64,000 nt of DNA from Octopus vulgaris (GCA_951406725.2 OX597817.1:25296001-25360000); one strand, 5' to 3'. Positions 1,889-55,620 are shown, counted from the stretch's first letter. Notes: generated from the letters alone by a model not told the origin. Made by a program: numbers and translations.

Positions 1889-3233
1889 TTCTTTTACTAT
1901 TGTAACACTGGAATTAAGACTGTTCAATGAGAAACATCTTTTGTTTTGTTATATACAGGTATATAACTTCATACAATGCTTCATGTTCCCTTTTGTAGGT
2001 TTCTAGAATGGTTTTTAAACACTAATGCACTGGAACTAAATACTGTAAACCCTTCTTTCATTGATTCCCTACTGTTCAAAGTATCGACATGAAATTTTGG
2101 GATTTAAGTAAATAATTGGCTATTAGGTCTAACACTTAATCCCTTGTTAATCAGACTGAGCAAACCTATGATCAAAGATATTAACATATCTAGCATTAAT
2201 TTAGCAGATGTGCCCTTCCTTATTTATGATGACAGGTGATTATTTGAAGTAGATTTGACTGCTATTTCTAGTGGCTTAAGGGACGAACAAATGGTCTCCC
2301 TATTTGGCCTGGATTTTCTCAAATGGTTAAATGATTCTTACAGGTGGTCTGATGTAATCAGGTAATAGAGTATTTACTGTTGCAGCAGTAAGGACAATAA
2401 CAGCAGCACCAACAACAACATTAATAATAGGCATAACATTGACTGACAACCCTCTCTTCTATACTTTTGAAACAACCACATCCACTGCTAATTATATCAC
2501 CTTAGTATTGAAAGTAATCATTTACTTTGGCTAGGTATTTAAGAGAATTTATTCCTGACATGATTTTAGTGCTTATTACCACAGTGCATCTATCATTTAC
2601 AAAGCTTGCTTTTTCTTTTAGCCTGTTTGTGGTTCCACTAAATCAGTTGTGTATTTATGGTTTACACTGGAATTTCTACCATTTCCTTTTCTGCATATTG
2701 AGTTAGGTAAATTTTCGTCTGGTTCCAGGATCCTATATTTCTTTTTCTTACTAATATTTTAGCCTTACTAATATTTTAGCTTACTTTGATATTTCTAAAT
2801 TCTAGATTTTGTTTTCACATCTGGAATTTCTTCTCTAATTCTACTATAGATTCACTAGGTTATAAGAGTCCTCAGGGACAGCTGACCTTTGTGGTGGCCT
2901 ACAAAACTCTGTTGAATAAGAGAAGCCAAGTACTTATCTTTTGACTCCTACATGCATGCAAAAATTCATTGCTTAATTAATCACTGACTTTAACTTTGCT
3001 GCTTGCACCAATAAACACAGTTTCTTCTGCCCTCATGAACTGTTCATCAATACTTAGTTTCATTATTCACCACCAGATCATTCAGTGGTATCATGTCAGA
3101 GGTTTTCTGCAAGTCAGTGACTGTAACTTTAAGTGAAGAATTTATTTTGTAATTACCTCACTAGGAAAATTACCTCTGTGGTTATGTCTTGTGGACATAA
3201 AGCCAAAATGCATTTGATATAGGCTAATTCCTT

Positions 3234-3556
3234 ATTTACATTATTTACTTTTGATGGATATTTGTCCTCATCTTGTTTATTTCTAACACAACGTTTCGGC
3301 TAATATACCTGATAGCCTTCATCAGGTGTCTTGGGGAAATTTCGAATCGGGGTTCTCATTCCTAACATATTTTCGATGTTATTATTATCCTCATTATTAT
3401 TATTATTATTATTATTGTTAAGGTCACTGCCTGGAATCGAACTTGGAATCTTGGGGTTAGTAGTGCGCCCTCTTAACCACTACGCTATATGCCTGTCAAA
3501 TGTAAATAATGTAAATTATGTACATAATTCCTCATCTCTTAAATATACAACTCTAT
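3234..3556 (-). mobile_element. Family F tRNA-headed SINE with hammerhead motif; 5'-inverted copy with 14-bp TSD
   Basis: The minus-strand head has A box TAGCGTAGTGG and B box GTTCGATTC (about 3421-3494), followed by an (AAT)n spacer and the HHR. The 3' tail reappears on the plus strand at 3494-3556. TSD TAGGCTAATTCCTT lies at 3220-3233 and 3557-3570. Homologous to 5044-5315. Confidence 0.85.
3285..3330 (-). ncRNA. Minimal type I hammerhead ribozyme inside family F SINE
   Basis: Minus strand reads GACAC-CUGAUGA-a-GGCUA(ucagguauau)UAGCC-GAAAC-GUU-GUGUU. Stem I is GACAC/GUGUU, stem II has 5 bp, and stem III is the loopless palindrome AACGUU. Confidence 0.7.
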
Positions 3557-3775
3557 TAGGCTAATTCCTTTCCTGAAAAATTGTGCAATGACTGTCTGTG
3601 ACATGAATCCATTTTCCATCACACATAACAATACGTTGCAAAAATGGTTCACTTTTATGCCATGACAGCAAATAACAGCAAGTTGAAACTTGTTATTTGA
3701 TGTTCGTTCAGTTCATGTGGTACCCACTTACCCAGCTTCTTTACCTTGCCAATTTGTTTCAGATGGTCCACTATA

Positions 3776-3993
3776 CTCTCTCTCTTTTCTCTCTTTTACT
3801 TGTTTCAGTCATTTGACTGCGGCCATGCTGGAGCACCGCCTTTAGTCGAGCAAATCAACCCCGGGACTTATTCTTTGTAAGCCCAGTACTTATTCTATCA
3901 GTCTCTTTTGCCGAACCGCTAAGTTACGGGGAGGTAAACACACCAGCATCGGTTGTCAAGCAATGCTAGGGGGACAAACACAGATACACAAAC

Positions 3994-4038
<45 letters not shown>

Positions 4039-4201
4039 CGACAGGCTTCTTTCAGTTTCCGTCTACCAAATCCACTCACAAGGCATTGGTCGGCCCGGGG
4101 CTATAGCAGAAGACACTTACCCAAGGTGCCATGCAGTGGGACTGAACCCGGAACCATGTGGTTGGTTAGCAAGCTACTTACCACACAGCCACTCCTGCAC
4201 C
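3776..4201 (-). mobile_element. Family A tRNA-derived SINE, full length
   Basis: Head GGYGCAGGAGTGGCTGTGTGGTAAG, internal (CA)/(TA) repeat, and tail ...GAAACAAGTAAAAGAG. Short CTATA duplication at 3771-3775 and 4201-4205. At least nine homologues in the window. Confidence 0.9.
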
Positions 4202-4446
4202 TATAGTTGAAATCGAAACATCAAACCTTGCTGCAAACTCATGCATAATTTGAGATGTATCTGCTTCCTCTACAGTTTCCAGCTCATCATTATCCACCTC
4301 GATCTCAGGTCTGATTTTTAAGAGTAAAGTCACCAAACTGGAACTTCTCAAGCCATCACCATACAGTGCACTCATTCACCACATTTTCAACAAACACCTC
4401 ATTGATGTTTCAAGTTGTCTGAGATGCATTAGTTCCACAATGGAGC

Positions 4447-4595
4447 GGCGCAGGAGTGGCTGTGTGGTAAGAGACCGATAGAATAAGTACTGGGCTTACA
4501 AAAGAGTAAGTCCCGGGGTTGAGTTGCTCGATTAAAGGCAGTGCTCCAGCATGGCCGCAGTCAAATGACTGAAACAAGTAAAAGAGTAAAAGAGT
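4447..4595 (+). mobile_element. Family A SINE, internally deleted (about 25-nt head fused to 3' tail)
   Basis: Junction GTGTGGTAAG|AGACCGATAG. TSD AATGGA(G/A)C at 4439-4446 and 4596-4603, inside the mariner. Confidence 0.85.
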
Positions 4596-4830
4596 AATGG
4601 AACTCATATTCATAAACAACACAAATTTTTTTATCTATCCATCGGTTCACAAAAATTGATTTACAAGAGAAAACTCAGAATATAATCAGACACCATAAAT
4701 TGCATTTTGAAAAGCGATGTTGTAACTCTTTAATGCTGTAAAACAAAGAATTCTTAGGATAAAACATTAGAGTTAACGACTGTCAAACCTGGTGCATAAG
4801 AAAATCGAACATTTCATTCTTAATGACCTG

Positions 4831-4832
<2 letters not shown>

Positions 4833-4863
<31 letters not shown>

Positions 4864-4873
4864 TGTATGTATG

Positions 4874-4907
<34 letters not shown>

Positions 4908-5035
4908 TGTATGTTTGTATGTATGTATGTATGCATGTATGTGTGTGTGTATGTATGTATATGTACAAACGTATATACATGAATGTATGTGTATATATAT
5001 ATATTTATATATATATATTTATATATATATATACA
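4833..5035. repeat. (TATG)n/(TA)n compound microsatellite
   Basis: Direct reading. Confidence 0.95.
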
Positions 5036-5043
5036 TGCCCACA

Positions 5044-5315
5044 GGCATATGGTGAAGTGATTAAGAGTGCGGGCTACTAGCCCCAAGATTCCAAATTCGA
5101 TTCCTGGCAGTGACCTGAATAATAATGATAATAATAATAACATCGAAAAATACCTTAGGAATGAGAATCCAGGTTCGAAATTTTCCCAAGACACCTGATG
5201 AAGGCTGGAGGGTATATCAGCTGAAACATTATGTTAACAACAAACAAGATGAGAGCAAATATCCGTCAAATGTAAATAATGTATATAATCCCTAAACTCT
5301 TAAATATAAAACTGT
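5044..5315 (+). mobile_element. Family F tRNA-headed SINE with decayed hammerhead (5190-5235)
   Basis: Collinear with the reverse complement of 3234-3494 plus the tail. The motif GACAC CTGATGA a GGCTGG...TCAGCT GAAAC ATT ATGTT shows CpG-type decay relative to the 3285 copy. Confidence 0.85.
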
Positions 5316-5323
5316 ATTATACA

Positions 5324-5380
<57 letters not shown>

Positions 5381-6056
5381 CTATGCATGTAAACGTAAAC
5401 ATGCGTTTGTGTTTTTACAATGTCATTAAGCACAGTTATTCTCTACTAAATTTCACTTAGATGGTTTTGCTCAACCTGACTTTTTGGGTGAAAAGACTTG
5501 TCCATGCTGATGTACTATAGGAATGAAACCAGTACTCCGTGACCATAAAGCAGCCTTATAAACCACATGACCATATCAGCACACCAGGTTATTATGTGTG
5601 TTAGAGACGATTGTCCTCTTGGATCAGAGACCACTTTGTTGTAGATAAATTTTTCCACCATCGATTTTGAACTCAGGCAAGCAAAGTAATGAAACTATTT
5701 TACAGTTCTGCTGTTGCTACTGTTTTATAGAGGATGACCTAGATCATGTTACATCGTAGCAGCAAAATGCTTTTACAATAAGTCAATGCAATATTTTGGA
5801 ATCGTACTTTGATTTGAAATGGCATGTCAGAACAGAAGCAATTTACACTGTGGAAGAGACATTTGAGTAATCTAAAAGTACAAAAACTGTTACATTCACA
5901 TTTTATATGTTTCTTAGGTGTCAAAATTTTTGTTCTACTTCTGTGACTGGACCACTGGCACATCTCTCCTACAATTCATTGAAATCATTACTGTGTCTAG
6001 ATGAGAAGAATGTTTAAATACAAATATTAGGTTAAGTTATATATCACGGTGCATAG

Positions 6057-6391
6057 TGAAGGCGCATGGCTCAGTGGTTAGAGCGTCGAGCTTACGATCG
6101 TGAGGTTGTGAGCTCGAATCCTGGACCGGGCTGTGTGTTGTGTTCTTGAGCAAGGCACTTTATTTCACGTTGCTCCAGTTCGCTCAGCTGTAGAAATGAG
6201 TTGCGACGTCACGAGTGCCAAGCTGTATCGACCTTTGTCTTTCCCTTGGATAACACTGGTGGCGTGGAGAGGGGAGGCTGGTATGCATGGGCGACTGCTG
6301 GTCTTCCATAAACAACCTTGCCCGGACTTGTGTCTAGGAGGGTAACTTTCTAGATGCAATCCCATAGTCATTCATGACCGAAGGGGTCTTT
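6057..6391 (+). mobile_element. Family D tRNA-derived SINE
   Basis: A box TGGCTCAGTGG and B-box-like GCTCGAATCC, then a TTCTTGAGCAAGGCACTT domain. Homologue at 46257. Confidence 0.9.
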
Positions 6392-20559: not shown

Positions 20560-22170
20560 CACCATATCCCAAAACACCAAATGCCTTTCTCTGCAACTTC
20601 AGTGATGGAATTTATGACCTTCCTCTTTGCTACACCAGTAACTTCAATTGCAACAACTATCTAACAAAGTGAATACCCAACAAAATCAAACAACCCATAT
20701 CTACTAGTTTGCAATGTGCCAGCAAGCATTATTTTCCACACTGCTCTAACAGCTTCTGATATAAGGTAATCTTTCTCTCATCAGCCTCCTCCATATGTTC
20801 TTCCAAAGGAACAGTCAGTTCCTACATGATCACATTTTGGTGGAAGTTTTGATGATTACTGTGCCAGGGCAAAGTGTTGTTGGCCCAATATACTCTGGGA
20901 ACTTTAATTGTTCTGCAAGATCACTCTGGGGCTGTGGAAAATGAGCATTAGTCATTGATGGTTCAGTGAACTGGTCTTCTATCTAGCTCTGTAAAAAATG
21001 ATGGTTTTTTTCTGGGGTAGTATTTATTGGATTGAATGGCTGTATTGCTATATACTGTATTTTGAAATAATAGCATGAAATTCAATATCAAAATATTTCT
21101 CACTAAGATATATATGTCTAAAATAGTATTGTATTAAAAATATATATAAATATATGAAACATGACAGCTTAAAAATATTGTTATCACTCCAGCAACCACC
21201 TTGATTTCCTGATCATGTTGTCAGCAAGAGAAGTCATTGACTAAGTGTCTATGGCAGCTGCTGAGGACGTGTTGAAGAGACCCTCTCTCAGTACACAATG
21301 GGCAGGAGGGTGATTCACTCTTACCTCATCTGTGAAGTTTTGTCAGATGTGGTAAAGTATCATAGGGAGGCCCTGATTGGAAATCTGATATACTGGATGT
21401 CAGCCTACCAGGGATTCGATTAAGAGATGTTCCATTGCTATAATTTGTCTGACTTTGTTCTGTCTCATGGTTGAGTAAGTCCTACTATCCTTCAAGTCTG
21501 TGTTTCCATTATACTTGTGCAGACTGCTTTCTAACTAGAAAGGGTGTGGCCTGGTCAGCCTGTAATGACATGCATAAGATCTGGTCATCAAATCTAAGTA
21601 GAGACTTCAAACTTGAAATCTTCAAAGCCACAGTTGAACCAATTCTACTATATGGCTCAGAAACCTGGACGTTATCAAAGAAGCTTGAGAGGTGGTTGGA
21701 TGGAACCTATACTCGCCTCCTTATGAGAGCTCAAAATCTCTCGTGGAAGCGCCATCCAACCAAAATGCAAATATATGGGAAACTACCACCTGTGTCATCT
21801 CTTGTGAAAGGTAGGAGAGTCCAGTTTGCTGGACATTGTTGTAGAGCTGAAAAAGAAGTAATTTCTACTCTTCTCCTCTGGAAGCCATCTACTCACAATA
21901 CCAGAGGGCGCACACTCTCCTACCCTGATGTAACCTCCAGGGATACAGGCATCCAGCAACAGGACCTCCGTAATGCCATGATGGACCGTGAGGTCTGGCG
22001 TAGCATGGTAAATTCCATTGTCTCGACCACGGTCGAACAATGATGATGATCTTTCTGGAAGAGAGGATTTCACCATCTTCTTTTGGTGTAACCAATCTGG
22101 CAAGCTGGAAAGTAACTCAAGCTTTGACCACCTATGGCCACAGTCCCAACAAGACAGGAGTATCAACAAT
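20560..22170 (-). mobile_element. Decayed HERO/NeSL-like non-LTR retrotransposon C-terminus (CCHC knuckle and restriction-like endonuclease), interrupted by an RTE
   Basis: Minus strand gives YDTLPHLTKLHR*GKSESPSCPLCTERGSLQHVLSSC...QHDQ (about 21200-21370) and LKFPEYIGPTTL...ELTVPLEEHMEEADERK..YQKLLEQC (about 20700-20920). Confidence 0.7.
21522..22050 (+). mobile_element. RTE-clade LINE 3' fragment (RT C-terminus, open frame) with (TGA)n tail
   Basis: ORF 21471..22043 contains KLEIFKATVEPILLYGSETWTL...RRVQFAGHC...AMMDREVWR, and the stop is followed directly by a TGA repeat. Confidence 0.9.
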
Positions 22171-24999: not shown

Positions 25000-25368
25000 T
25001 TAAGAAATGCATATCACGCATTATTCCATTATTAAACGAAGAAATTATCTTAAAAAGGTTGGTAGAAACAGAAAATCCAAATCTTATATGTTTGCCATTA
25101 ACTATTTTTCCGTATCTAGTGTTTTTAAAGTTTTTATTTATAATCTTTTTCATAGATTTAACAAAATGTGTCTTTAATTGTTTATCGAAAGGAATTATGA
25201 TCCATATAGTTTTATCTGAGTCTACCTTATTTATATATTCATTTTTTTGTCACAATATCGTTTTTTCCCACACAAGGTATTAATTTCTCCTTTACTGTCT
25301 TCTTCTTATTATTGTTATTTTGGTTGTTGTTGATGATGATGTTGTTGTTGTTGTTATTATTATTATTA

Positions 25369-25448
<80 letters not shown>

Positions 25449-26460
25449 GTTATTATTATTCTTGCTCATATTTTTATTTTTGGTTTTATATTCTCCATCT
25501 ATTTGTTCAATTTCATTATTGTAATTATCTTTGTTTAACATATTCATAATAATAATAATAATAATAATAATAATTATTATTATTATTGCTTGGGGGATTT
25601 TCATTCCTACTTTGTAAGGATTTACTATGTCTTTGTTGCTACATCCATAGTTTTATCATTATTATTTTTATTCTTATTTTCAATTTGATTTTCCAAGATA
25701 TTGCAATTCTTATTGTACTTAATTTCTTAATTATAACCAACCTTCTTTAGTGCTATATTATAATTATCTTTATGCTTGTTAAATACTTCTTCATTTGAAG
25801 ATTGATAATTAATTCGTCTCTCAATAGTCATACTAATGTTCTCAATAATATTAAGTGGATGACTACTATTTGCATTTATATATCTAATGTTAAAGTTAGG
25901 TTTTTGATAGGGTTGGTGAATACCCGTTTTAAGGTTAAAGATTAAAGTTAGCGTCAAGAAAGTTTACTGAGTTATTTTCTTTTTCAATTGAAATTGATAG
26001 ACCGTGGTTCTTAAAAAATTGTATGTAATCTTGTTTTTGTAATTTTCCATTATTCTATTAGTAATGTTCTTTATTAAGAATAGGTCATCGTCACGGTAAA
26101 GTCCTCCTATTTCAGAAATTTCTTCATTAAATTTATATAGAATATAGACATCTGGGCGGAGTCATCTGTGGCCATTGGTATATCAAAACAATGAGGTGTG
26201 CCTTTTCTTGCCCAATATTTACCATCGTGAAAGACCACTGTTTTTCTTACTGCAAGTATGATTTTTATTTTTTTCATGGACAAGTTTCTTTTATTCTTAG
26301 CAAATATGAGTGCCTTGTCTAATACAATAAATAGGGTTAATAGATTGGTAATAATCGTTAATGTCTATTTGTATAAATTTACATTTATTCTTAAATCCTA
26401 TTAAACCAATCAATTGTATCCTGCTAGAACGCATCCTGCTAAACCATAGGCTAAACTTAA
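25000..26460 (-). mobile_element. Penelope-like element reverse transcriptase remnant
   Basis: Minus-strand motifs: KFIQIDINDYYQSI, RKTVVFHDGKYWARKG..FDIPMA, GGLYRDD (catalytic, about 26085-26108), HQPYQKPN..YINANSSHP...ALKKVGY, and IWIIIPF...KIVN..IRFGFS. Confidence 0.85.
25307..25588. repeat. (ATT)n/(GTT)n/(AAT)n tracts within the PLE
   Basis: Direct reading; the main tract reads as poly-Asn on the PLE strand. Confidence 0.95.
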
Positions 26461-26482
26461 TTTTTCTTTTTAGAGACAGCAA

Positions 26483-26523
26483 ACTCTCCGACGAACGGAG
26501 ACGTGAAACTCTGAGTAAAAGGT
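26483..26523 (+). ncRNA. Hammerhead-like motif, U4C core variant
   Basis: CCGACGA-ACG(gaga)CGU-GAAA-CUC(u)GAG-UA with weak stem I. A related copy with similar downstream sequence lies at 50758-50796. Confidence 0.45.
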
Positions 26524-26727
26524 CTGTGAATATTTTGCAGCTTTTATAATAAATTGTATGTATATGTATATATACATATATTCAAATTATAATTTATGGT
26601 ATCTAAGAGATACCACCACGCTTGAAATAGCAGCCAAAACTTGACTCTAAAACTACAGTAAAAGTTCATACAGCACCAGGAGAGGAGACAAAAAGACAAA
26701 ATAAACTATCAAAAAAATTACTGGATA

Positions 26728-26785
26728 ATTCCAGATCCTAGATTTCTGGCTTTGCATAAGAAATGCTCAGCCTCATCAGTGGAAT
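26728..26785 (-). ncRNA. Type I hammerhead ribozyme motif
   Basis: Minus strand reads AUUCCA-CUGAUGA-GGCU(gaGCAUuucuuAUGCaa)AGCC-a-GAAA-UCUAGGA-UC-UGGAAU. Stem I is a perfect 6 bp, stem II is 4+4 bp, and the triplet is AUC. Confidence 0.75.
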
Positions 26786-27049
26786 ATACGCAGCACATAC
26801 ATACAAATATATACATACAACATACGAATACTTACATATACGAACGTATACATACATATATATGCATGTATGTAAACGACCAGTTTAAATTGCTCGCCTA
26901 AAACCCCTCGTGCGATATGGTTAAATATATCACCGAAGTGAATATAATGACGAAATAAATATATAAATTTATTTAAATAAGGATAAGATCATTATTTAAA
27001 TATCGAACTTATCAAGTGGCCAGCATGGGAATAAAAACCTTCCACTGAT

Positions 27050-28730
27050 GAGGCAAAGTAACAATGAAGCGAGTTCCGTTGCACAGGTGAGATTAGTCAA
27101 GATTCCTAAGCAACATAATGGGAGCACCCAGTTTTAGTGTCAAGTTATGCGGTGGCATCCCAGCGGGTTTCAGTGTGTTCAGAAATTGAACAGTGTGTTG
27201 AACAACCATATCTTGATCGACTATTGTCAGTTGATCTAAAAGTCAGTTCTGATGTACCTGCTAACTTTTGAAAATGCTCTTGACTGAGTTTATCAACCAT
27301 TTCGTTAGTTGGAACTAGTATTGCAGTTTCTCATAGCTAGTTGACAACAGAGAAATTGACAGATGCATTAGGAAATACTTTATCCATAAGATCCCTAAGA
27401 GAATGTATAATTTTACTGCATGTAATTTCAAGTAGCTGAAATCTTGAGTTGTTAATATCTCATTAATAATCGTAAAAAACTCGTATGATCTTGTAGAAGT
27501 ACTCTGATGTTGCCTGTAAGATGAAGGTTTTTCACGCCTCCAAAGGTACGAGTTTTTGAAGTATGCATTGACCTCATCAGCTTTTGATCCTTTGAGGATA
27601 ACTGGCAAGTTTTGACGAAAATCTACTGCGCCCATGAGCGCGCTATTGTTTTTTATGTCATAGAGATACGGTCAAGTACATCTGGAGCTCCACGATGTAA
27701 CAATGCACTCATCATTAAAGGTGAGGCAAGTTTGTTAGAAAACTGTTACAATTGCAAAGTTTTTAGAAATGTCGCACATTTGAGATTCTTTCATTGCAAG
27801 ATTTAGAAGGAGATTGAACATGGAATGAGCAGTTCTTCCCCCATCGAGGAGGGTAGCTGCAATACCAGAAGCTGCAACACTGGAAGAAGGTTAGATTTTA
27901 TTTCCTCTCATTTAGGATTGCAGGTGAAAGTGACAAAATGATCTGGTTTTCCATATGTCCTGACATATCTCAAAGCATCTTGTGTTCGTTCGTACATATA
28001 TCGAGGACCATCTGTGAATCATGATAAGAGGATTTTAAGTTGTTCTATGTTTTGAATATCTCCATCTGTCCTCAGAGCACCTAGGAGGTGAGCATAATTT
28101 TTAGCCCTTAACTTTTTTTGATTGTTACGAATGTAGAAAACACACTGACTCTCAACTTTATTATATATATATCAACCAGGTATTGATAAAATATATTTCT
28201 TTATTATCCGCAAGGGACTAAACACAAAGGGGACAAACAAGGACAGACAAACGGATTAAGTCGATTACATCTATCCCAGTGCGTAACTGGTACGTAATTT
28301 ATCGACCCCGAAAGGATGAAAAGCAAAGTCGACTTCGGCGGAATTTGAACTCGGAACGTAACGACAGACGAAATACGGCTACGCATTTCGCCCGGCGTGC
28401 TAACGTTTAATAGATCACGATAAATGTATGATTGATTTGAGTGTTCTGGTCTTAACATCAGTTGGTAAGAATAGAAGTCATTTGACGACACCTTTTTGTT
28501 TGTAATTAGCTCTCCTATTGCCGGTTCAATATGTGGAATAATGAAATGATATCTTTGTTGTCCATTCCACAGAATAAGAGGATACAGGAGAGCATCATAA
28601 GAGGGATGAGTCTCTGAAACACATTAAAGGTTGTTATCTCAAGCACGAATGGGAATATCACGATTTTCCTGGGAATCACCTAAGGATGGCTACTTCATTA
28701 GATGTGAGCTCATTAAACTGGCGTAAAATG
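27050..28730 (-). mobile_element. Internally deleted Helitron Rep/Pif1-helicase remnant with a nested SINE
   Basis: Rep-side peptides: ETHPSYDALLYPL...SSNDFYSYQLM and NQKKLRA...GPRYMYERTQDALRYVRTYGKPDHFVTFTCNPK. Helicase peptides: SGIAATLLDGGRTAHS, DFRQNLPVI...SYLW and LLRNL..LCNGTR. Confidence 0.9.
28193..28407 (-). mobile_element. Family B SINE nested in the Helitron
   Basis: Homology to other family B copies; head slightly truncated. Confidence 0.9.
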
Positions 28731-34376: not shown

Positions 34377-34785
34377 CATCATCATCATCATCATTGTTCG
34401 ACCGTGGTCGAGACAATGGAATTTATCATGCTACGCCAGACTTCACGGTCCATTATGGCATTACGGAGGTCCTGTTGCTGGATGCCTGTATCCTTGGAGA
34501 TTACATCAGGGTAGGAGAGTGTGCGCCCTCTGGTATTGCGAGTAGATGGCTTCCAGAGGAGAAGAGTAGAAATTACCTCTTTTTCAGCTCTACAACAATG
34601 TCCAGAAAACTGGACTCTCCTACCTTTCACAAGAGATGACACAGGTGGTAGTTTCCCATATATTTGCATTTTGGTTGGATGGCGCTTCCACGAGAGATTT
34701 TGAGCTCTCTTAAGGAAGCGAGTGTAGGTTCCATCCAACCGCCTCTCAAGCTTCTTTGATAACGTCCAGGTTTCTGAGCAATATA
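34377..34785 (-). mobile_element. RTE-clade LINE 3' fragment, same family as 21522-22050
   Basis: ORF 34391..34852 from SETWTLSKKL to STTVEQ* is nearly identical to the 21.5-kb copy and ends in a (TGA)n tail. Confidence 0.9.
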
Positions 34786-35019
34786 CACACACGTATGGAC
34801 ACACACACAAAGAACTTGAAGTGAACTTGTATATTAGAGGGAAGCTAGTCATGAGTGCTGTTGATGGTTCTGCTCAATGATGGTTCGTAGACGTATGCCC
34901 ATATTTGATACCACTTCTGTGAATCGTACCAGCACCCCATATGTTATTTCAATTAAATATGATCCACAAAGGGAGCCCTTGCAAAATATAGAAGTCAAGT
35001 TTCTTTCAATGAACATTAT

Positions 35020-44572: not shown

Positions 44573-44880
44573 TTTGTTTGTTTGTTCCTTCTCGAGCCAT
44601 GCCTGGCTCATAAGGGCCGGTTTCCCGGTTTCCTTGGCGTATAGATTCCCCACCTGGACGGGACGCCGGCTCGTCGCAGGTGAGCTGCAAGATGCAGGAG
44701 GAAAGAGTGAGAGAAAGTTGTGGCAAAAGCGTCAGCAGAAGTTCGCTATTACCTTCTGCCAGAGCCTCTTGGAGCTTAGGTGTTTCGCTCATAAACACAC
44801 ATATCGCCCGGTCTGAGATTCGAACCTGCAATCCCTCGACCGCGAGTCCGCTGCTCTAACCACTGGACCATGTGCCTGCA
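44573..44880 (-). mobile_element. Family E SINE, 3' module type 2 ending in (AAAC)n
   Basis: tRNA head GGCACATGGTCCAGTGGTTAGAGC..GGTTCGAATC. TSD ACAATGCAACG at 44562-44572 and 44881-44891. Confidence 0.9.
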
Positions 44881-46256
44881 ACAATGCAACGAGATTCCCA
44901 TTATTCAAAGTTTTATTCTGTTTAAATATGGCAGGATGTGAGAGAGTTTCGCCAATTACTCCTAGCAGTACGAGTTGCTGTATGAAGGTATCTTCGTTGC
45001 CTTAAAGTAGGTATAGTCGTTGTTATCGCTGTTGCTGTTATTTATCCCCTGGTCAACTTCGATTGTGTAGACGCGTGAAAAGGCTTTCTAGCTATGACCA
45101 TCCTATCTGCTTCTTTTTATAAGACACAATGTTGTGCTCAAAGATATTCTACTGGATGAGCAACCTTGGCTCACTCAATATAGTGAGATAAAGCAGGATA
45201 CTGCAGCAGTAAAATGTAGTAGCAAATAGTATGTTATCTTGTAGTAGTGTAGACTTTACTATGAAGTATAGCGTTCTGGTGTATTTCAATACTTTATACA
45301 GTGTATGTATGAATTAATGCTTTAATACCAGAAAATATTTAAATATTCCTCTTATTTCCATTTAAACTGTTCAGTTTCTTCAGCTTGCTTCTTACTGCCA
45401 TAGGAGTTTAGTCCCGAGTGGTAATGTTAGAATTGGTTTTTATAGAATTTCTGATAACAGCATAAGGTAAATCTGCATGAAATGATATACGTTATCTTTT
45501 AGATATGGCTATCATGGTCATGATGATGTGTGCGCTATTGTGATATAAAATAGCAAAAGATTATAAAGATATTTTTCTCAGATGGCTTAAGCTATTTAAA
45601 AAATAATGCATTGATACTTGACATTGGAATATAAAAAAAAATGTCATTGTTACAGCATGAATTAACATAAAGGAAATATCTTTGAGTGAGTGTGTATATG
45701 CCTCTGTACATATCAACATAAGGCAGCATATCGTTCTCAAAGTATTTTAAATCAGTTTCTAAAACAGTTTTATTTATAGTTCATATACAGAACGATCGCT
45801 TCTTTTGTTTTCTCGATTCTGGTCAATTCCTATATTATGAATCGTTTGTTGTCCCAACTGGAGCAGATTACTCAAAATTAGGGCGTTTGAACGATCATAT
45901 ATGACTTTCACAATTATAAAATCTTGAGCGGTGCATGACTATAGCCAGTACTTAGAGGTCCTGGCGTTCTGGTTACAACAACTGTATATGGTTGCCATAT
46001 AGAATGACAAGTCCTCGCTGTTCATGCAAAACGATATGGTTCTACTATAGTTTAAAGCCCCGTCTGGTCCAATCATGAAGAATCACAGCTTCGTGATCGT
46101 TATTGCAACTTGTTCAAGGTGGCAGCATGAGGAAGTGCATTTTCTTTGCTTCCCTTCAGGCTTTGCCTTGGTCTGCGACCGGGGAAATTTGGAATCAGTA
46201 GTAGTAGTGAAGGTCTGCATCATTAGCCATTTTGCTGTGGTTACTACTACATCTGT

Positions 46257-46587
46257 GAAGGCGCATGGCTCAGTGGTTAGAGCGTAGAGCTAACGATTGT
46301 GAGGTTGTGAGTTCGATTCCCGTACCGGGCTGCGTGTTGTGTTCTTAAGCAAGACACTTTATTTCACGTTGCTCCAGTCAACTCAGCTGTAGAAATGAGT
46401 TGCGATATCACTGGTGCCAAATTGTATTGGCCTTTGCCTTTCCCGTGGTGTGGAGAGGGGAGGCTGGTATGCATGGACGACTGCTAGCCTTCCACAAACA
46501 ATCTTTCCCTGACTTGTGCCTGAGAGGGTAACTTACTAGGTGCAATCCCATGGTCATTTGTGACCGAAGGGGGTCTCCTCCTCCTCC
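46257..46587 (+). mobile_element. Family D SINE
   Basis: Homologous to 6057. TSD ACTACTACATCTGT at 46243-46256 and 46588-46601. Confidence 0.9.
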
Positions 46588-47600: not shown

Positions 47601-47995
47601 ACAGGCGTGGCTCTGGGCTGAGTGGTAAGAAGTTTGCTTCCCAATCACAGGGTGCACTTGTCTTTTACTGCGGCCTCGGGCCAACCAAAGCCTTGTGATT
47701 GATTTGGTAGACAGAACCTGGAAGAAGTCGATTTTTATGTGTGCCTCTCTGTGTGTGTGTGTGCTTGCGTACTTATGTGTGTGTGTTTGTATTCTTGTTT
47801 TTCCCAAACCACCCTTTCCCAACTGGGGTTTTGTGTACGTAACTTACTGGTTCTGCAAAAAAAAAAAAAAAAAAAGCGTAGAATAAATACCAGGCTTGAA
47901 AACAAGAAGTCAAAAGTAGTGGTCTCGATTCGTTCGAGTATAATTCTTCAAGGCGATGCTGCAGCATGACCGCAATTTAATAACTTAATAACAAT
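47601..47995 (+). mobile_element. Diverged family A SINE
   Basis: Degenerate homology to family A head, body and tail. Confidence 0.75.
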
Positions 47996-48089
47996 TTAAT
48001 ACAAGCCTACATTCACTCACTCACATATAAGTATGCCATGTCTGGTGTCTACAACAGATTTCAACCCCTTCTCATTCTCTACTCTTATA

Positions 48090-49601
48090 GACATGTCAGG
48101 GCCATGCCACTCAGTAATAACATTGTCTCCAACAGAATTGATGAAATGGGGCAAGATGTTGAAAACCAGCTTATTAAGACATTAAAATCACGAAAATTCT
48201 CATTTCAAATGGATGAATCCACATTTCGGGACAGTGATGACCTGTTATTGATTTATTTGAGATATTTTGAGCACGAGGCTTCTCAGGAAGAGATGTTGTT
48301 TTGTAAGTCATTGGAAACAACTACAACTGCAAAGGATATCCACAGCAAAACTTAAACATTTGGATGCAAACAAAATACCAAAAGAAAATTTACTGCCATG
48401 CGTGGCAGACGGTGCACCTGATATGATGGGCAAAAAACGTGATGCTTAAAAATGACGAAGGATGAAAACCCAAACATGTTGATTGTCCATTGCGTCATAC
48501 ACCGAGAAAACTTGGTTGCCAAGAAACTGTCCCCTGATTTTAATGATATTCTGCGAGCTGTGATTAAGTGTGTCAATAGCATTAATGCAAATCCCAAAGC
48601 CGAACGTCTTTTAAAGCGGTTTTGTGTAGATCAAAGTGCCGAGCATGTTCGATTATTGCTTCATACAGAAGTAAGGTGACTATCAAGTGGAAATAGCTTT
48701 AAAAGGTTCATGGAATTATTTGATAAGCTTAATGACTTTCTTATAGATAAATGTGAAATGAAAATGCTGTCCACAACGGATTAAAAAACGTTTATCAGTT
48801 ATTTGACAGACATCTTTGAGAAACTTGGAAACTTGAATAAACAACTCCAAGGTGCAAATAGGAAGCGTGTTGATGCGAAAGGAAAGGTTTTTGGATTCAT
48901 TACAGCCGTCGAAATATACAAAAAAAAAATTTTTTTAAAAGAAATTTCAGTCAGTGAAACTGGTTGAATAAATGCAAGATAACGAATGATGCTGCCACCG
49001 TAATTATTGACCGTTTGAATATCTTAGTAAAAGACCTCAACAACAGATTTCGTAATATGGAGGCAATGAATTTTCCCACTTGGCGAACTCAACCACTGTT
49101 GATTGACGTTTCTGATGCTGCAGTTCAATACCAAGAAGATTTATCAGAATTGCAACATGATGAATCAGTGAAGACATTGTTTAAATTGAAAAGTACAACT
49201 ACGTGGCTATGTGATGAGGTTGAAAGAACATACTCCAACATCTCTACATCAGCAAGAGAACTATCGATTCATTTTCTTTCGTCTTGTTGGTCGAATGTGG
49301 ATTCAGTGCAGTTGACAATTTGAGACAAGAGAAACCGGCTTGAAATTACAAAACGTGGCGATTTACGACTGAAAGCAACGAAATTGTCTCCGCAAATCAA
49401 GGATCTGTGCCGTATGCATTAGGCACAGGGTTCTCACTAAAGGAGTCGAGTTATCCGTTAGCCAACTAATTGAATTAAACATTGTGTTTCTACATTAAAA
49501 ATAAAATGTTGATGGGGCCCAGATTTTTGTTATTAAAATGTAGGGCACCTGAAAATTTGTTATTAAAAAGTGATGAACCGATAAAAGGCTGGGAAGCACT
49601 G
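48090..49601 (+). mobile_element. hAT (Charlie/Buster group) transposase pseudogene with right TIR
   Basis: Peptides MPLSNNIVSNRI...FSFQMDEST, ADGAPDMMG, VHCVIHRENL and LLLHTEVR*LS, with frameshifts and stops. Terminus GGCTGGGAAGCACTG is followed by ATTTAAAC (nnnTAnnn target pattern). Confidence 0.9.
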
Positions 49602-54354: not shown

Positions 54355-55620
54355 TTAGGTTGGCAACTAAGTTCGCGCCGTTTTTTAAAATTTAAATTTT
54401 GTAAAAGGTTTAATAAAAAATAACAACTAATTAATCAATAATGTATTCACCCTTGTTGTTTACAACTTCTTCCCAACGTTCAACAGGATTTTCAGTACCT
54501 CGTTGGTAGAAATCACCCGATTTCGACTAAAAAACCTCATCCAACCAAGTTCTCAATTCTGCATCAGAATTGAACGAAACTCCGCGCACAGCATTTGAAA
54601 GAGACCGAAAGAGGTAGAAATTCGTTGGTGCCAAATCTGTAAAGTGCGGTGGGTGTGGCAGCACTTCCCACCCATGCGTTTGAATGGCTTCCTTGGTCAC
54701 ATTGGCGATATGAGGGAGGGCGTTGTCGTGCAGCAGAAGAACTCCATGCTACCGATTAGGTCTTTTCTCTTGAATACCCGTGTTGAGTCGTTCCACCTGT
54801 TGAACATAGAGTTGAGCGTTTGGTTCCGTTCAAGCAATTCGTAATGGATAATCCCTTCCCAGTCCCACTATACGCACAACATCGTTTTACACTGATGAAG
54901 ATCTTGTTTCACGCGCGATGTTACTTGTTTATCAGGGCGAAGCCATTCCTTACGCTGCTTTATATTGATGTACAGGCACCATTTTTCGTCGCCAGTAACG
55001 ATTCAGTAAAGAAATTGTTGCTTGTGTCCATGAGTTGAGCGGTGACGAGCAAGCAAACCAGCGGAGATTGTGGCTCGTTGATTTTTGTTGTTGTCACTTA
55101 AAGCATGCGGAACCCATACTCTATACTTCTGAACCTTTCCCATCGAGTGAAGATGCTTCTCTATAGCAGTGTGGGAGCATTCTATTTTCTTTGTCAGTTC
55201 CCTTGTTGTTTGCCTAGAATTGTTGTGCAAAATTTGGTTTAATCGCTCTTCATCGAACTCAACTGGACGGCTAGAACGAAGTGCGTCTTTGAGGTGAAAA
55301 TTTCCATTTTTGAACTTGGCATATCAATGACAAGCGGTTTTTTAAGTTATGGCACCCTCTCCATACACAGCACAAATGTCGCGAGCAGCTTTTGCAGCCT
55401 TAGAACCTTGATTAAAAGCAAAAAGGAGGTGTCGAAAATGCTCGTTTTTCTTAACTTGACGTTCCATTTTAATGATCTGAAAATAAACAAAAATTAACTA
55501 AAATAAAATAGAGAAAACAAAAAACAAAATAGATTCCAAAATGATTCAAAAATAGAATTCTCGACAAAAGCAATAGATTCCAAATTAAAAAAAACGGCGT
55601 GAACCTAGTTGCTAACCCAA
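54355..55620 (-). mobile_element. Near full-length mariner with both TIRs and TA TSD; transposase pseudogene about 54431-55467
   Basis: TIRs TTAGGTTGGCAACTAAGTTCGCGCCGTTTTT and TTGGGTTAGCAACTAGGTTCACGCCGTTTTT, with TA on each side. Peptides MERQVKKNEHFRH, WVPHAL, VTGDEKW, HDNALPH and APTNFYLFRSL, with in-frame stops. Confidence 0.95.

Follow-up and report, generated by a model that had tools for sequence, protein, structure and literature searches.

The stretch of the Octopus vulgaris genome analysed here, referred to below as the window, is 64 kb long (GCA_951406725.2, OX597817.1:25296001-25360000). It contains two copies of a repeat of about 275 bp, which we call the ribozyme SINE (Table 1). 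Its head is tRNA-like and is followed by an (AAT)n spacer, a minimal type I hammerhead and finally an AT-rich end. This order of parts had been proposed in the initial annotation of the sequence. It was found in both copies, and the segments are alike, with 66 of 76 identical positions in the head, 45 of 52 in the linker, 38 of 46 in the ribozyme and 43 of 51 in the post-ribozyme segment. Over 266 alignment columns the full arm of copy 1 is 80% identical to copy 2. The same annotation had described two copies of 270 bp. The interval 3234-3556 turned out to be a two-armed insertion of 323 bp, in which a full arm on the minus strand is joined to a piece of the 3′ end that is inverted and so lies on the plus strand. 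Poly(A) is absent from the 3′ end of both window copies, as had been stated; as to the accompanying statement that there is no RTE-type repeat tail, the short 3′ end in fact lies in two to three copies of a 9-nt unit. No target duplication was resolvable around copy 2 within its (TATG)n/(TA)n microsatellite.

Table 1. Features of the two ribozyme SINE copies, in window coordinates.
Feature	Position	Strand	Remarks
Left target-site duplication of copy 1, 14 bp	3220..3233	+	exact repeat of 3557-3570
Copy 1, full-length arm	3234..3496	-	stops at the short 3′ end, 56 nt beyond the cut, without tail; end corresponds to copy 2 position 5286
Minimal type I hammerhead, copy 1	3285..3330	-	core intact; predicted cut between 3290 and 3289
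(AAT)n spacer, copy 1	3379..3419	-	from sequence
tRNA-like head, copy 1	3423..3494	-	A box 3487-3477, B box 3442-3434
Copy 1, inverted 5′-truncated second arm	3495..3556	+	reaches the long 3′ end, tail included
Right target-site duplication of copy 1	3557..3570	+	first two bases also fit the element end
Copy 2, single, full-length, tailed	5041..5319	+	embedded in (TATG)n/(TA)n microsatellite
tRNA-like head, copy 2	5043..5115	+	A box 5050-5060; the B box, 5095-5103, has a changed first base
(AAT)n spacer, copy 2	5118..5140	+	from sequence
Hammerhead, copy 2	5190..5235	+	decayed at 5222, 5228 and 5231; predicted cut 5230|5231
9-nt unit, 2-3 copies	5269..5289	+	marks the short 3′ end cluster of the family
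Optional tail, 31-33 nt	5287..5319	+	long 3′ end near 5317; in copy 2 and one arm of copy 1

Relics of other repeats were observed in the window. A decayed and frameshifted reverse transcriptase (RT) relic of the type found in Penelope-like elements (PLEs) lies on the minus strand at about 25040-26500; it carries a long (AAT)n insert and ends in a microsatellite. Its thumb piece matches a PLE-ORF profile (E 1.2e-7) and HTH_animal clusters of the Atlas (0.97). The relic was missed by Pfam, and tblastn of 10 PLE ORFs against the window gave nothing below E 0.2. It shares no DNA with the ribozyme SINE. About 250 bp upstream of it, at 26725-26790 on the minus strand, there is a second, unrelated type I hammerhead-like motif in a single copy; it has a 6-bp stem I, CUGAUGA, a long stem II, an extra base before GAAA and a 3-bp stem III, and it fails the structural descriptor used below. 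A different family of tRNA-headed SINEs, also with A and B boxes, occurs at 6056-6330, 46255-46516 and 44787-44880, with a body that we take to be CORE-like. An abundant repeat with an internal microsatellite is present in about 8 window copies that are 80-96% alike (3786-4205, 4440-4600 and six further places), and two of these copies lie inverted between copies 1 and 2 of the ribozyme SINE. Transposon relics at 21453-22043, 34391-34873, 27096-28620, 47984-49323 and 55003-55323 comprise two C-terminal pieces of LINEs, a piece of a Pif1 helicase (Pfam E 7e-13), presumably Helitron-like, and two DNA-transposase-like frames; the names of the LINE and transposase pieces are presumptive.

In the head of both copies, an A+B scan revealed A and B boxes at the spacing found in tRNA genes. 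The heads align nearly gap-free to 11 of 12 distinct tRNA genes called by ARAGORN, the twelfth, a SeC call, having been left out. The genes for this comparison were fetched with a pattern from the 3′ half of the head; in the 5′ 42 nt, which lie outside the fetch pattern, the similarity gave z 4.2 for copy 1 (1 of 1000 shuffles) and z 3.4 for copy 2 (3 of 1000). ARAGORN called no tRNA in the element itself, and an Rfam search gave no tRNA match there at gathering score or at E 10, which is expected of a decayed head. A phage blastn search with the head returned only two weak matches to tRNA-Gln, at E 2. Both window copies start no more than 2 nt from tRNA position 1, as expected for a Pol III start. 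A T4 run is absent from copy 1, and the single one in copy 2 is missing from most reads of the family. Judging from the boxes, the start position and the lack of T4, the ribozyme SINE is likely to be transcribed by Pol III. The join between head and ribozyme was seen in 2 of 2 window copies and rests on these two, because the family read data described below span 5149 onward, without 5039-5148. Just 5′ of the ribozyme, both copies carry a second B-box-like motif (5160-5188 and 3332-3360), possibly a remnant of another tRNA-like piece.

In the case of the ribozyme, the better copy had been proposed to fold with GACAC/GUGUU as stem I, CUGAUGA with one extra A, stem II, GAAA and a palindromic stem III. 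This fold was confirmed. The centroid fold of the isolated copy 1 motif consists of exactly stems I and II (z -1.93; 8 of 200 shuffles were equally stable). A structural descriptor found copy 1 as its sole match in the 64-kb window, missing copy 2, and gave 0 matches in 60 Markov-null windows. The copy 1 motif combines two 5-bp stems, I and II, with CUGAUGA, the extra A, GAAA and the ACGU palindrome, which has no loop; the cut is predicted after GUU. An Rfam search gave no hammerhead match in the element at gathering score, or even at E 10. It had also been claimed that stem II of copy 2 still pairs although its inner bases differ. The double change is indeed there, but its value as covariation is weak. 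As proof of covariation it was rejected: the copy 2 letters are not flagged as minority, and the change in copy 1 falls in a 4-base cluster. This cluster creates a hairpin that competes with the core and is specific to copy 1.

The conservation of the motif was followed across sequencing runs. Parts of the ribozyme SINE are present in 20 of the 24 runs listed (seven coded organisms, 15 studies), and the family data given here come from four runs, namely two RNA runs of one study (X23 and X24) and two DNA contig sets. The aligned contigs in the two DNA runs number 19,525 and 10,316, which are not copy numbers. At the positions where copy 2 has decayed, the family majority in the four runs keeps the intact letters (60-78% at 5222, 65-84% at 5228 and 87-98% at 5231). 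CpG decay in the core is similar to that in the flanks (5-11% at 5223 and 5227 versus 10-14%), and is higher at 5222 and 5228. The one free position, N7, is the only common non-CpG core variant in DNA, at 11-16% (among the rows listed, 40 of 101). Both copy 1 and the family majority have a helix I of 4-5 bp, a conserved core, an unpaired base between 9 and 10.1, G10.1-C11.1 and a palindromic 15.2-16.2, which are the traits given for PLE minimal hammerheads by Cervera and de la Pena 2014 (PMC4209133). Helix II has 5 bp here, against 7-8 bp stated in that source for schistosome motifs. According to the same source, PLE minimal hammerheads have no activity as monomers and are weakly active as dimers (PMC4209133). 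A double-hammerhead dimer of copy 1 was calculated at -20.5 kcal/mol, whereas two monomers reach -22.2 and the best cofold -28.5; in this model, the dimer is possible, yet it is not the favoured fold.

The structure of copy 1 bears on how the element was inserted. The exact 14-bp duplication that flanks it has a chance expectation of about 2e-5 in 40x40 positions. The two arms meet at a 2-nt microhomology, where the short arm joins the head, and they overlap in 21 nt of the element. The short inverted arm extends 31 nt further 3′ than the full arm, so that the tail is one-sided, and the outer end of the full arm coincides with the short-end cluster of the family described below. When the orientation is read from the full arm, the inverted 5′-truncated copy adjoins the 5′ end of the full copy; this is seen in 1 of 2 window copies, and copy 1 is the only two-armed insertion of the ribozyme SINE that was observed complete. 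PLE insertions are described with an inverted 5′-truncated copy at the 5′ end and a tail of 30-40 bp, often on one side only (PMC8557442). Copy 1 shares both features with them, and its geometry is that of the published PLE pattern.

The 3′ ends of the family were examined in the four runs. Loose ends were found at 5280, 5282, 5283, 5288 and 5289, and each of the four runs has a cluster in this interval, which is 50-59 nt past the predicted cut; part of those at 5289 reflect a third 9-nt unit. A second cluster, at 5317 and about 87 nt beyond the cut, appears in the lists of just the two RNA runs, both of one study. The two clusters are thus about 31 nt apart. The loose letters at 5317 agree at 0.73-0.77, and this cluster may therefore be dominated by few loci. 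RNA depth after 5289 falls to 33-41% of the depth just before, and contig depth beyond 5289 amounts to 8-9%, edge effects included. Joints between opposite strands were observed at 5239/5268 in both RNA runs and at 5170/5232 in both DNA runs. Skips that end at 5256 were taken to be artefacts of changes private to copy 2 and were discarded. In X23 and X24, A>G changes were noticed at 28-30 places and T>C changes at 20-21 places of 5149-5321, versus 5-6 in the DNA contigs, which are unmatched; such a pattern would be expected if the repeat is heavily A-to-I edited in both orientations.

For comparison, loci that carry the same ribozyme core were collected. At least 122 were fetched, with complete flanks for 80; with the locus L001 they make 123 in all. 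The L001 contig (3380-3650), which is filed under a bacterial assembly, probably represents eukaryotic contamination, because its DNA is animal-like, with introns, microsatellites and two PLE-type ribozymes arranged head to head. A PLE ORF on the same strand lies within 600 bp in 28 of the 128 matches listed (27 with the ORF upstream), versus 5 with an ORF on the opposite strand. Counted by families among the matches listed, this is 8 of 52 versus 2 of 52, and many of the PLE-linked matches come from one 31-member family. Among the loci listed are some in which the core lies just downstream of GIY-YIG ORFs, the domain being identified with Pfam in 9 of the 13 ORFs scanned; RVT_1 together with GIY-YIG was confirmed in L059 and L035. 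Since the search pattern required GUU, the GUU triplet occurs in true PLE termini. An inverted arm upstream of the core was found in 16 of 102 matches listed. Twelve distinct head-to-head loci are among those listed. In 5 of them, a duplication of 8-16 bp directly abuts one arm and lies 28-36 bp outside the end of the other, which is the layout shared by copy 1; the remaining 7 have no clean duplication. Family-like ribozyme patterns were found at 0 loci in metagenome contigs and 0 in viral contigs; the single such locus in genome contigs is head-to-head and unrelated.

The spacing of ends was also compared among the loci listed. In a 12-member family, of which 11 were measured, the shared sequence stops 47-55 or 80-84 nt after the cut. 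This is the closest spacing to that of the ribozyme SINE, and no PLE ORF lies nearby. The loci of this family (L003, L004, L006, L023, L030, L033, L053, L063, L078, L079, L081 and L094) frequently have inverted arms and lack a tRNA head; they are candidates for a family of non-autonomous PLEs. In the 31-member GIY-YIG-linked family, the shared sequence is 59-120 nt long, most often about 70-78 or 106-120 nt. In the PLE of the anole, one RT start lies 85-92 nt past its ribozyme cut, a distance obtained by subtraction from data in PMC11167929. Outside the core, the ribozyme SINE had no match among the 123 loci listed, so that no autonomous element sharing its terminus is found there.

These data can be set against an ordinary LINE-driven SINE, in which the PLE terminus would be a passive body, the 9-nt repeat a LINE-type tail and copy 1 a twin-priming inversion. 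Most copies do end within the 9-nt unit of 2-3 copies, but about a third of RNA depth continues 30 nt beyond the repeat. Twin priming, which is established for L1, yields 5′ inversions with duplications; the full arm of copy 1, however, has its outer end on the short-end cluster and not at an arbitrary internal point, and its geometry matches that of the PLE loci. The window contains LINE relics that presumably resemble RTE, yet the 3′ half of the element has no match in the rest of the window, these relics included. The missing PLE partner among the 123 loci speaks for LINE enzymes. On balance, we regard a LINE-driven origin as unlikely.

Alternatively, the element could be a non-autonomous PLE with a dead SINE head. 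The PLE protein would move it, and its RNA would arise by read-through or in tandem source loci and owe nothing to the A/B boxes. Examples of short non-autonomous PLEs exist (PMC8557442), and the head no longer folds as a tRNA. The RNA data also lean this way: the depth climbs from 5′ to 3′, which suggests many truncated copies, though it is affected by the exclusion of 5039-5148, and 72% of the RNA reads run on into unlike sequence and probably derive from longer host transcripts. This reading leaves the correct spacing of the boxes and the start of both copies at the 5′ boundary of the head unaccounted for. Moreover, an A+B pair within 400 bp upstream was found in 0 of 111 PLE-type loci among those listed, so the tRNA head is not a generic PLE feature. 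A dead head is in our opinion improbable.

We consider it likely that the ribozyme SINE, a SINE with a Pol III promoter, is copied by the RT-endonuclease of a Penelope-like element and not by LINE enzymes. That it had captured a PLE terminus and may be moved by the PLE RT/GIY-YIG protein was the central claim of the initial annotation, and this claim is now supported by the arms, tail and 14-bp duplication of copy 1, by the two 3′ end clusters and by the position of the core downstream of GIY-YIG ORFs. A PLE protein is reported to cut and extend both strands, and its RT starts at two internal sites that bound the tail (PMC11167929). In the mechanism that we propose, the A and B boxes would drive a monomeric transcript from the head, and this promoter would remove the usual need of a PLE for a tandem upstream copy as promoter. 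The PLE protein would bind the captured terminus, and its GIY-YIG domain would make a 14-nt staggered cut. The RT could then start at either of two internal sites, which lie 50-59 nt and about 87 nt downstream of the ribozyme cut, and sometimes on both DNA ends; two cDNAs joined at the 2-nt microhomology would give copy 1. Stem III cannot be closed by a ribozyme monomer, so that the template would for the most part remain uncleaved, and cleavage would need a second copy or the PLE protein. According to in vitro work, ribozyme cleavage may be assisted by protein and dispensable for insertion (PMC11167929). In the case of the ribozyme SINE, cleavage is probably not required for insertion either.

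The predicted cut site was inspected in the family data. No pile-up of read ends was found there in the four runs, which is uninformative for fragmented libraries. Four indel rows reach 3%, and all of them lie at 5227-5231 around the predicted cut. They are deletions of 1-3 nt, each at about 3.3-4.1% in both RNA runs versus 0.02-0.5% of contig depth, and the same 3-nt loss occurs in a further 455 and 325 clipped reads of the two RNA runs. Simulated reads with substitutions only, aligned with another aligner under three scoring schemes, gave spurious gaps at 5255 and elsewhere and none at 5227-5231. Rare variants drop out of contigs, both RNA runs come from one study, the alleles are non-independent and few expressed loci may dominate; for these reasons the deletions do not show cleavage.

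The deletions touch on two further readings. In a retrozyme or SM-alpha-like cycle, dimeric hammerheads would cut tandem source arrays into monomer or circle templates, and small deletions at the cut could be scars of re-ligation. The ribozyme is of the dimer type, and retrozymes, monomers included, have been proposed as PLE parasites (PMC7229834; bioRxiv 10.64898/2026.07.22.740005). A single contig joint running back from 5263 to 5190 would also fit, but no reads end at the cut, and both window copies are non-tandem and unlinked, colinear from the head and not permuted at the cut site. Such a cycle seems to us very unlikely. The other reading extends the preferred one, PLE-driven copying from a Pol III transcript, and we put it forward as speculative and somewhat doubtful. 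It holds that a very abundant SINE switched its partner class, with the tRNA promoter expressing the monomeric template that a telomerase-like Penelope enzyme would copy, and that the ribozyme still cuts in host RNA; the cut-site deletions would then mark repeat-bearing transcripts that were cleaved and imprecisely rejoined, or that survived cleavage.

The accepted view of SINEs is that they parasitise LINEs. If the ribozyme SINE is indeed served by a PLE, it would offer a natural minimal substrate of 275 nt for the poorly understood PLE cycle and would inform on the RNA features that the PLE protein needs, the reason for two start sites and the purpose of the ribozyme. Many thousands of neutrally decaying copies would allow statistical answers from one assembly. 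Repeat annotations would, in that case, file some PLE activity under SINE.

Among known repeats, the octopus tRNA SINEs OK, OR1 and OR2, reportedly from the work of Ohshima and Okada in 1994, are said to be tRNA-headed and similar in size to the ribozyme SINE. The body of the latter has, as we judge it, no CORE-like appearance, unlike OR2. OR2 has been described as a CORE SINE (PMC4758252). The ribozyme SINE family may already be catalogued as a plain SINE. PLEs make up 6.83% of the O. vulgaris genome, and the searched text of that report does not mention ribozymes (PMC13282606). In our search of the literature, conducted outside Repbase and Dfam, we met with no tRNA-headed SINE attributed to a PLE, nor did we see the motifs described here in print.

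The combination of a SINE and a hammerhead as such has been seen before, SM-alpha being the precedent. SM-alpha and Sj-alpha of Schistosoma are SINE-like elements of Pol III type, and their promoter is followed by a type I hammerhead (PMC6765202, PMC8490949). In these accounts, SM-alpha is tandem and an active ribozyme frees units from multimers, whereas the ribozyme SINE is dispersed; it differs further in its loopless PLE minimal hammerhead and in its PLE arm-and-tail insertions. With endonuclease-positive PLEs and their pLTRs, as described in PMC8557442, PMC4209133 and PMC11167929, it shares the minimal hammerhead, the inverted 5′-truncated arm, the optional tail and two internal end sites; unlike PLEs, it has no ORF, no partial tandem was seen, and its 5′ end is a tRNA-like head. 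Animal non-LTR retrozymes (PMC7229834; bioRxiv 10.64898/2026.07.22.740005) are likewise short and non-coding, with a type I hammerhead and proposed PLE machinery. They are defined as tandem repeats, and neither window copy of the ribozyme SINE is tandem, though source arrays may exist elsewhere; in the searchable text of the preprint (bioRxiv 10.64898/2026.07.22.740005), the words 'tRNA' and 'promoter' occur 0 times. A further parallel is provided by the TRIMp3 elements Helenus, Ajax and Cassandra, in which parasites of LTR elements carry a Pol III promoter derived from a small RNA, together with two LTRs, a PBS, a PPT and 4-5-bp duplications (PMC10886601). The ribozyme SINE would be their PLE counterpart, in which a Pol III promoter likewise serves a non-autonomous parasite of a retroelement other than a LINE. 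Such parasites of LTR elements are a recent addition, and a Pol III SINE run by a PLE, if true, would complete the set.
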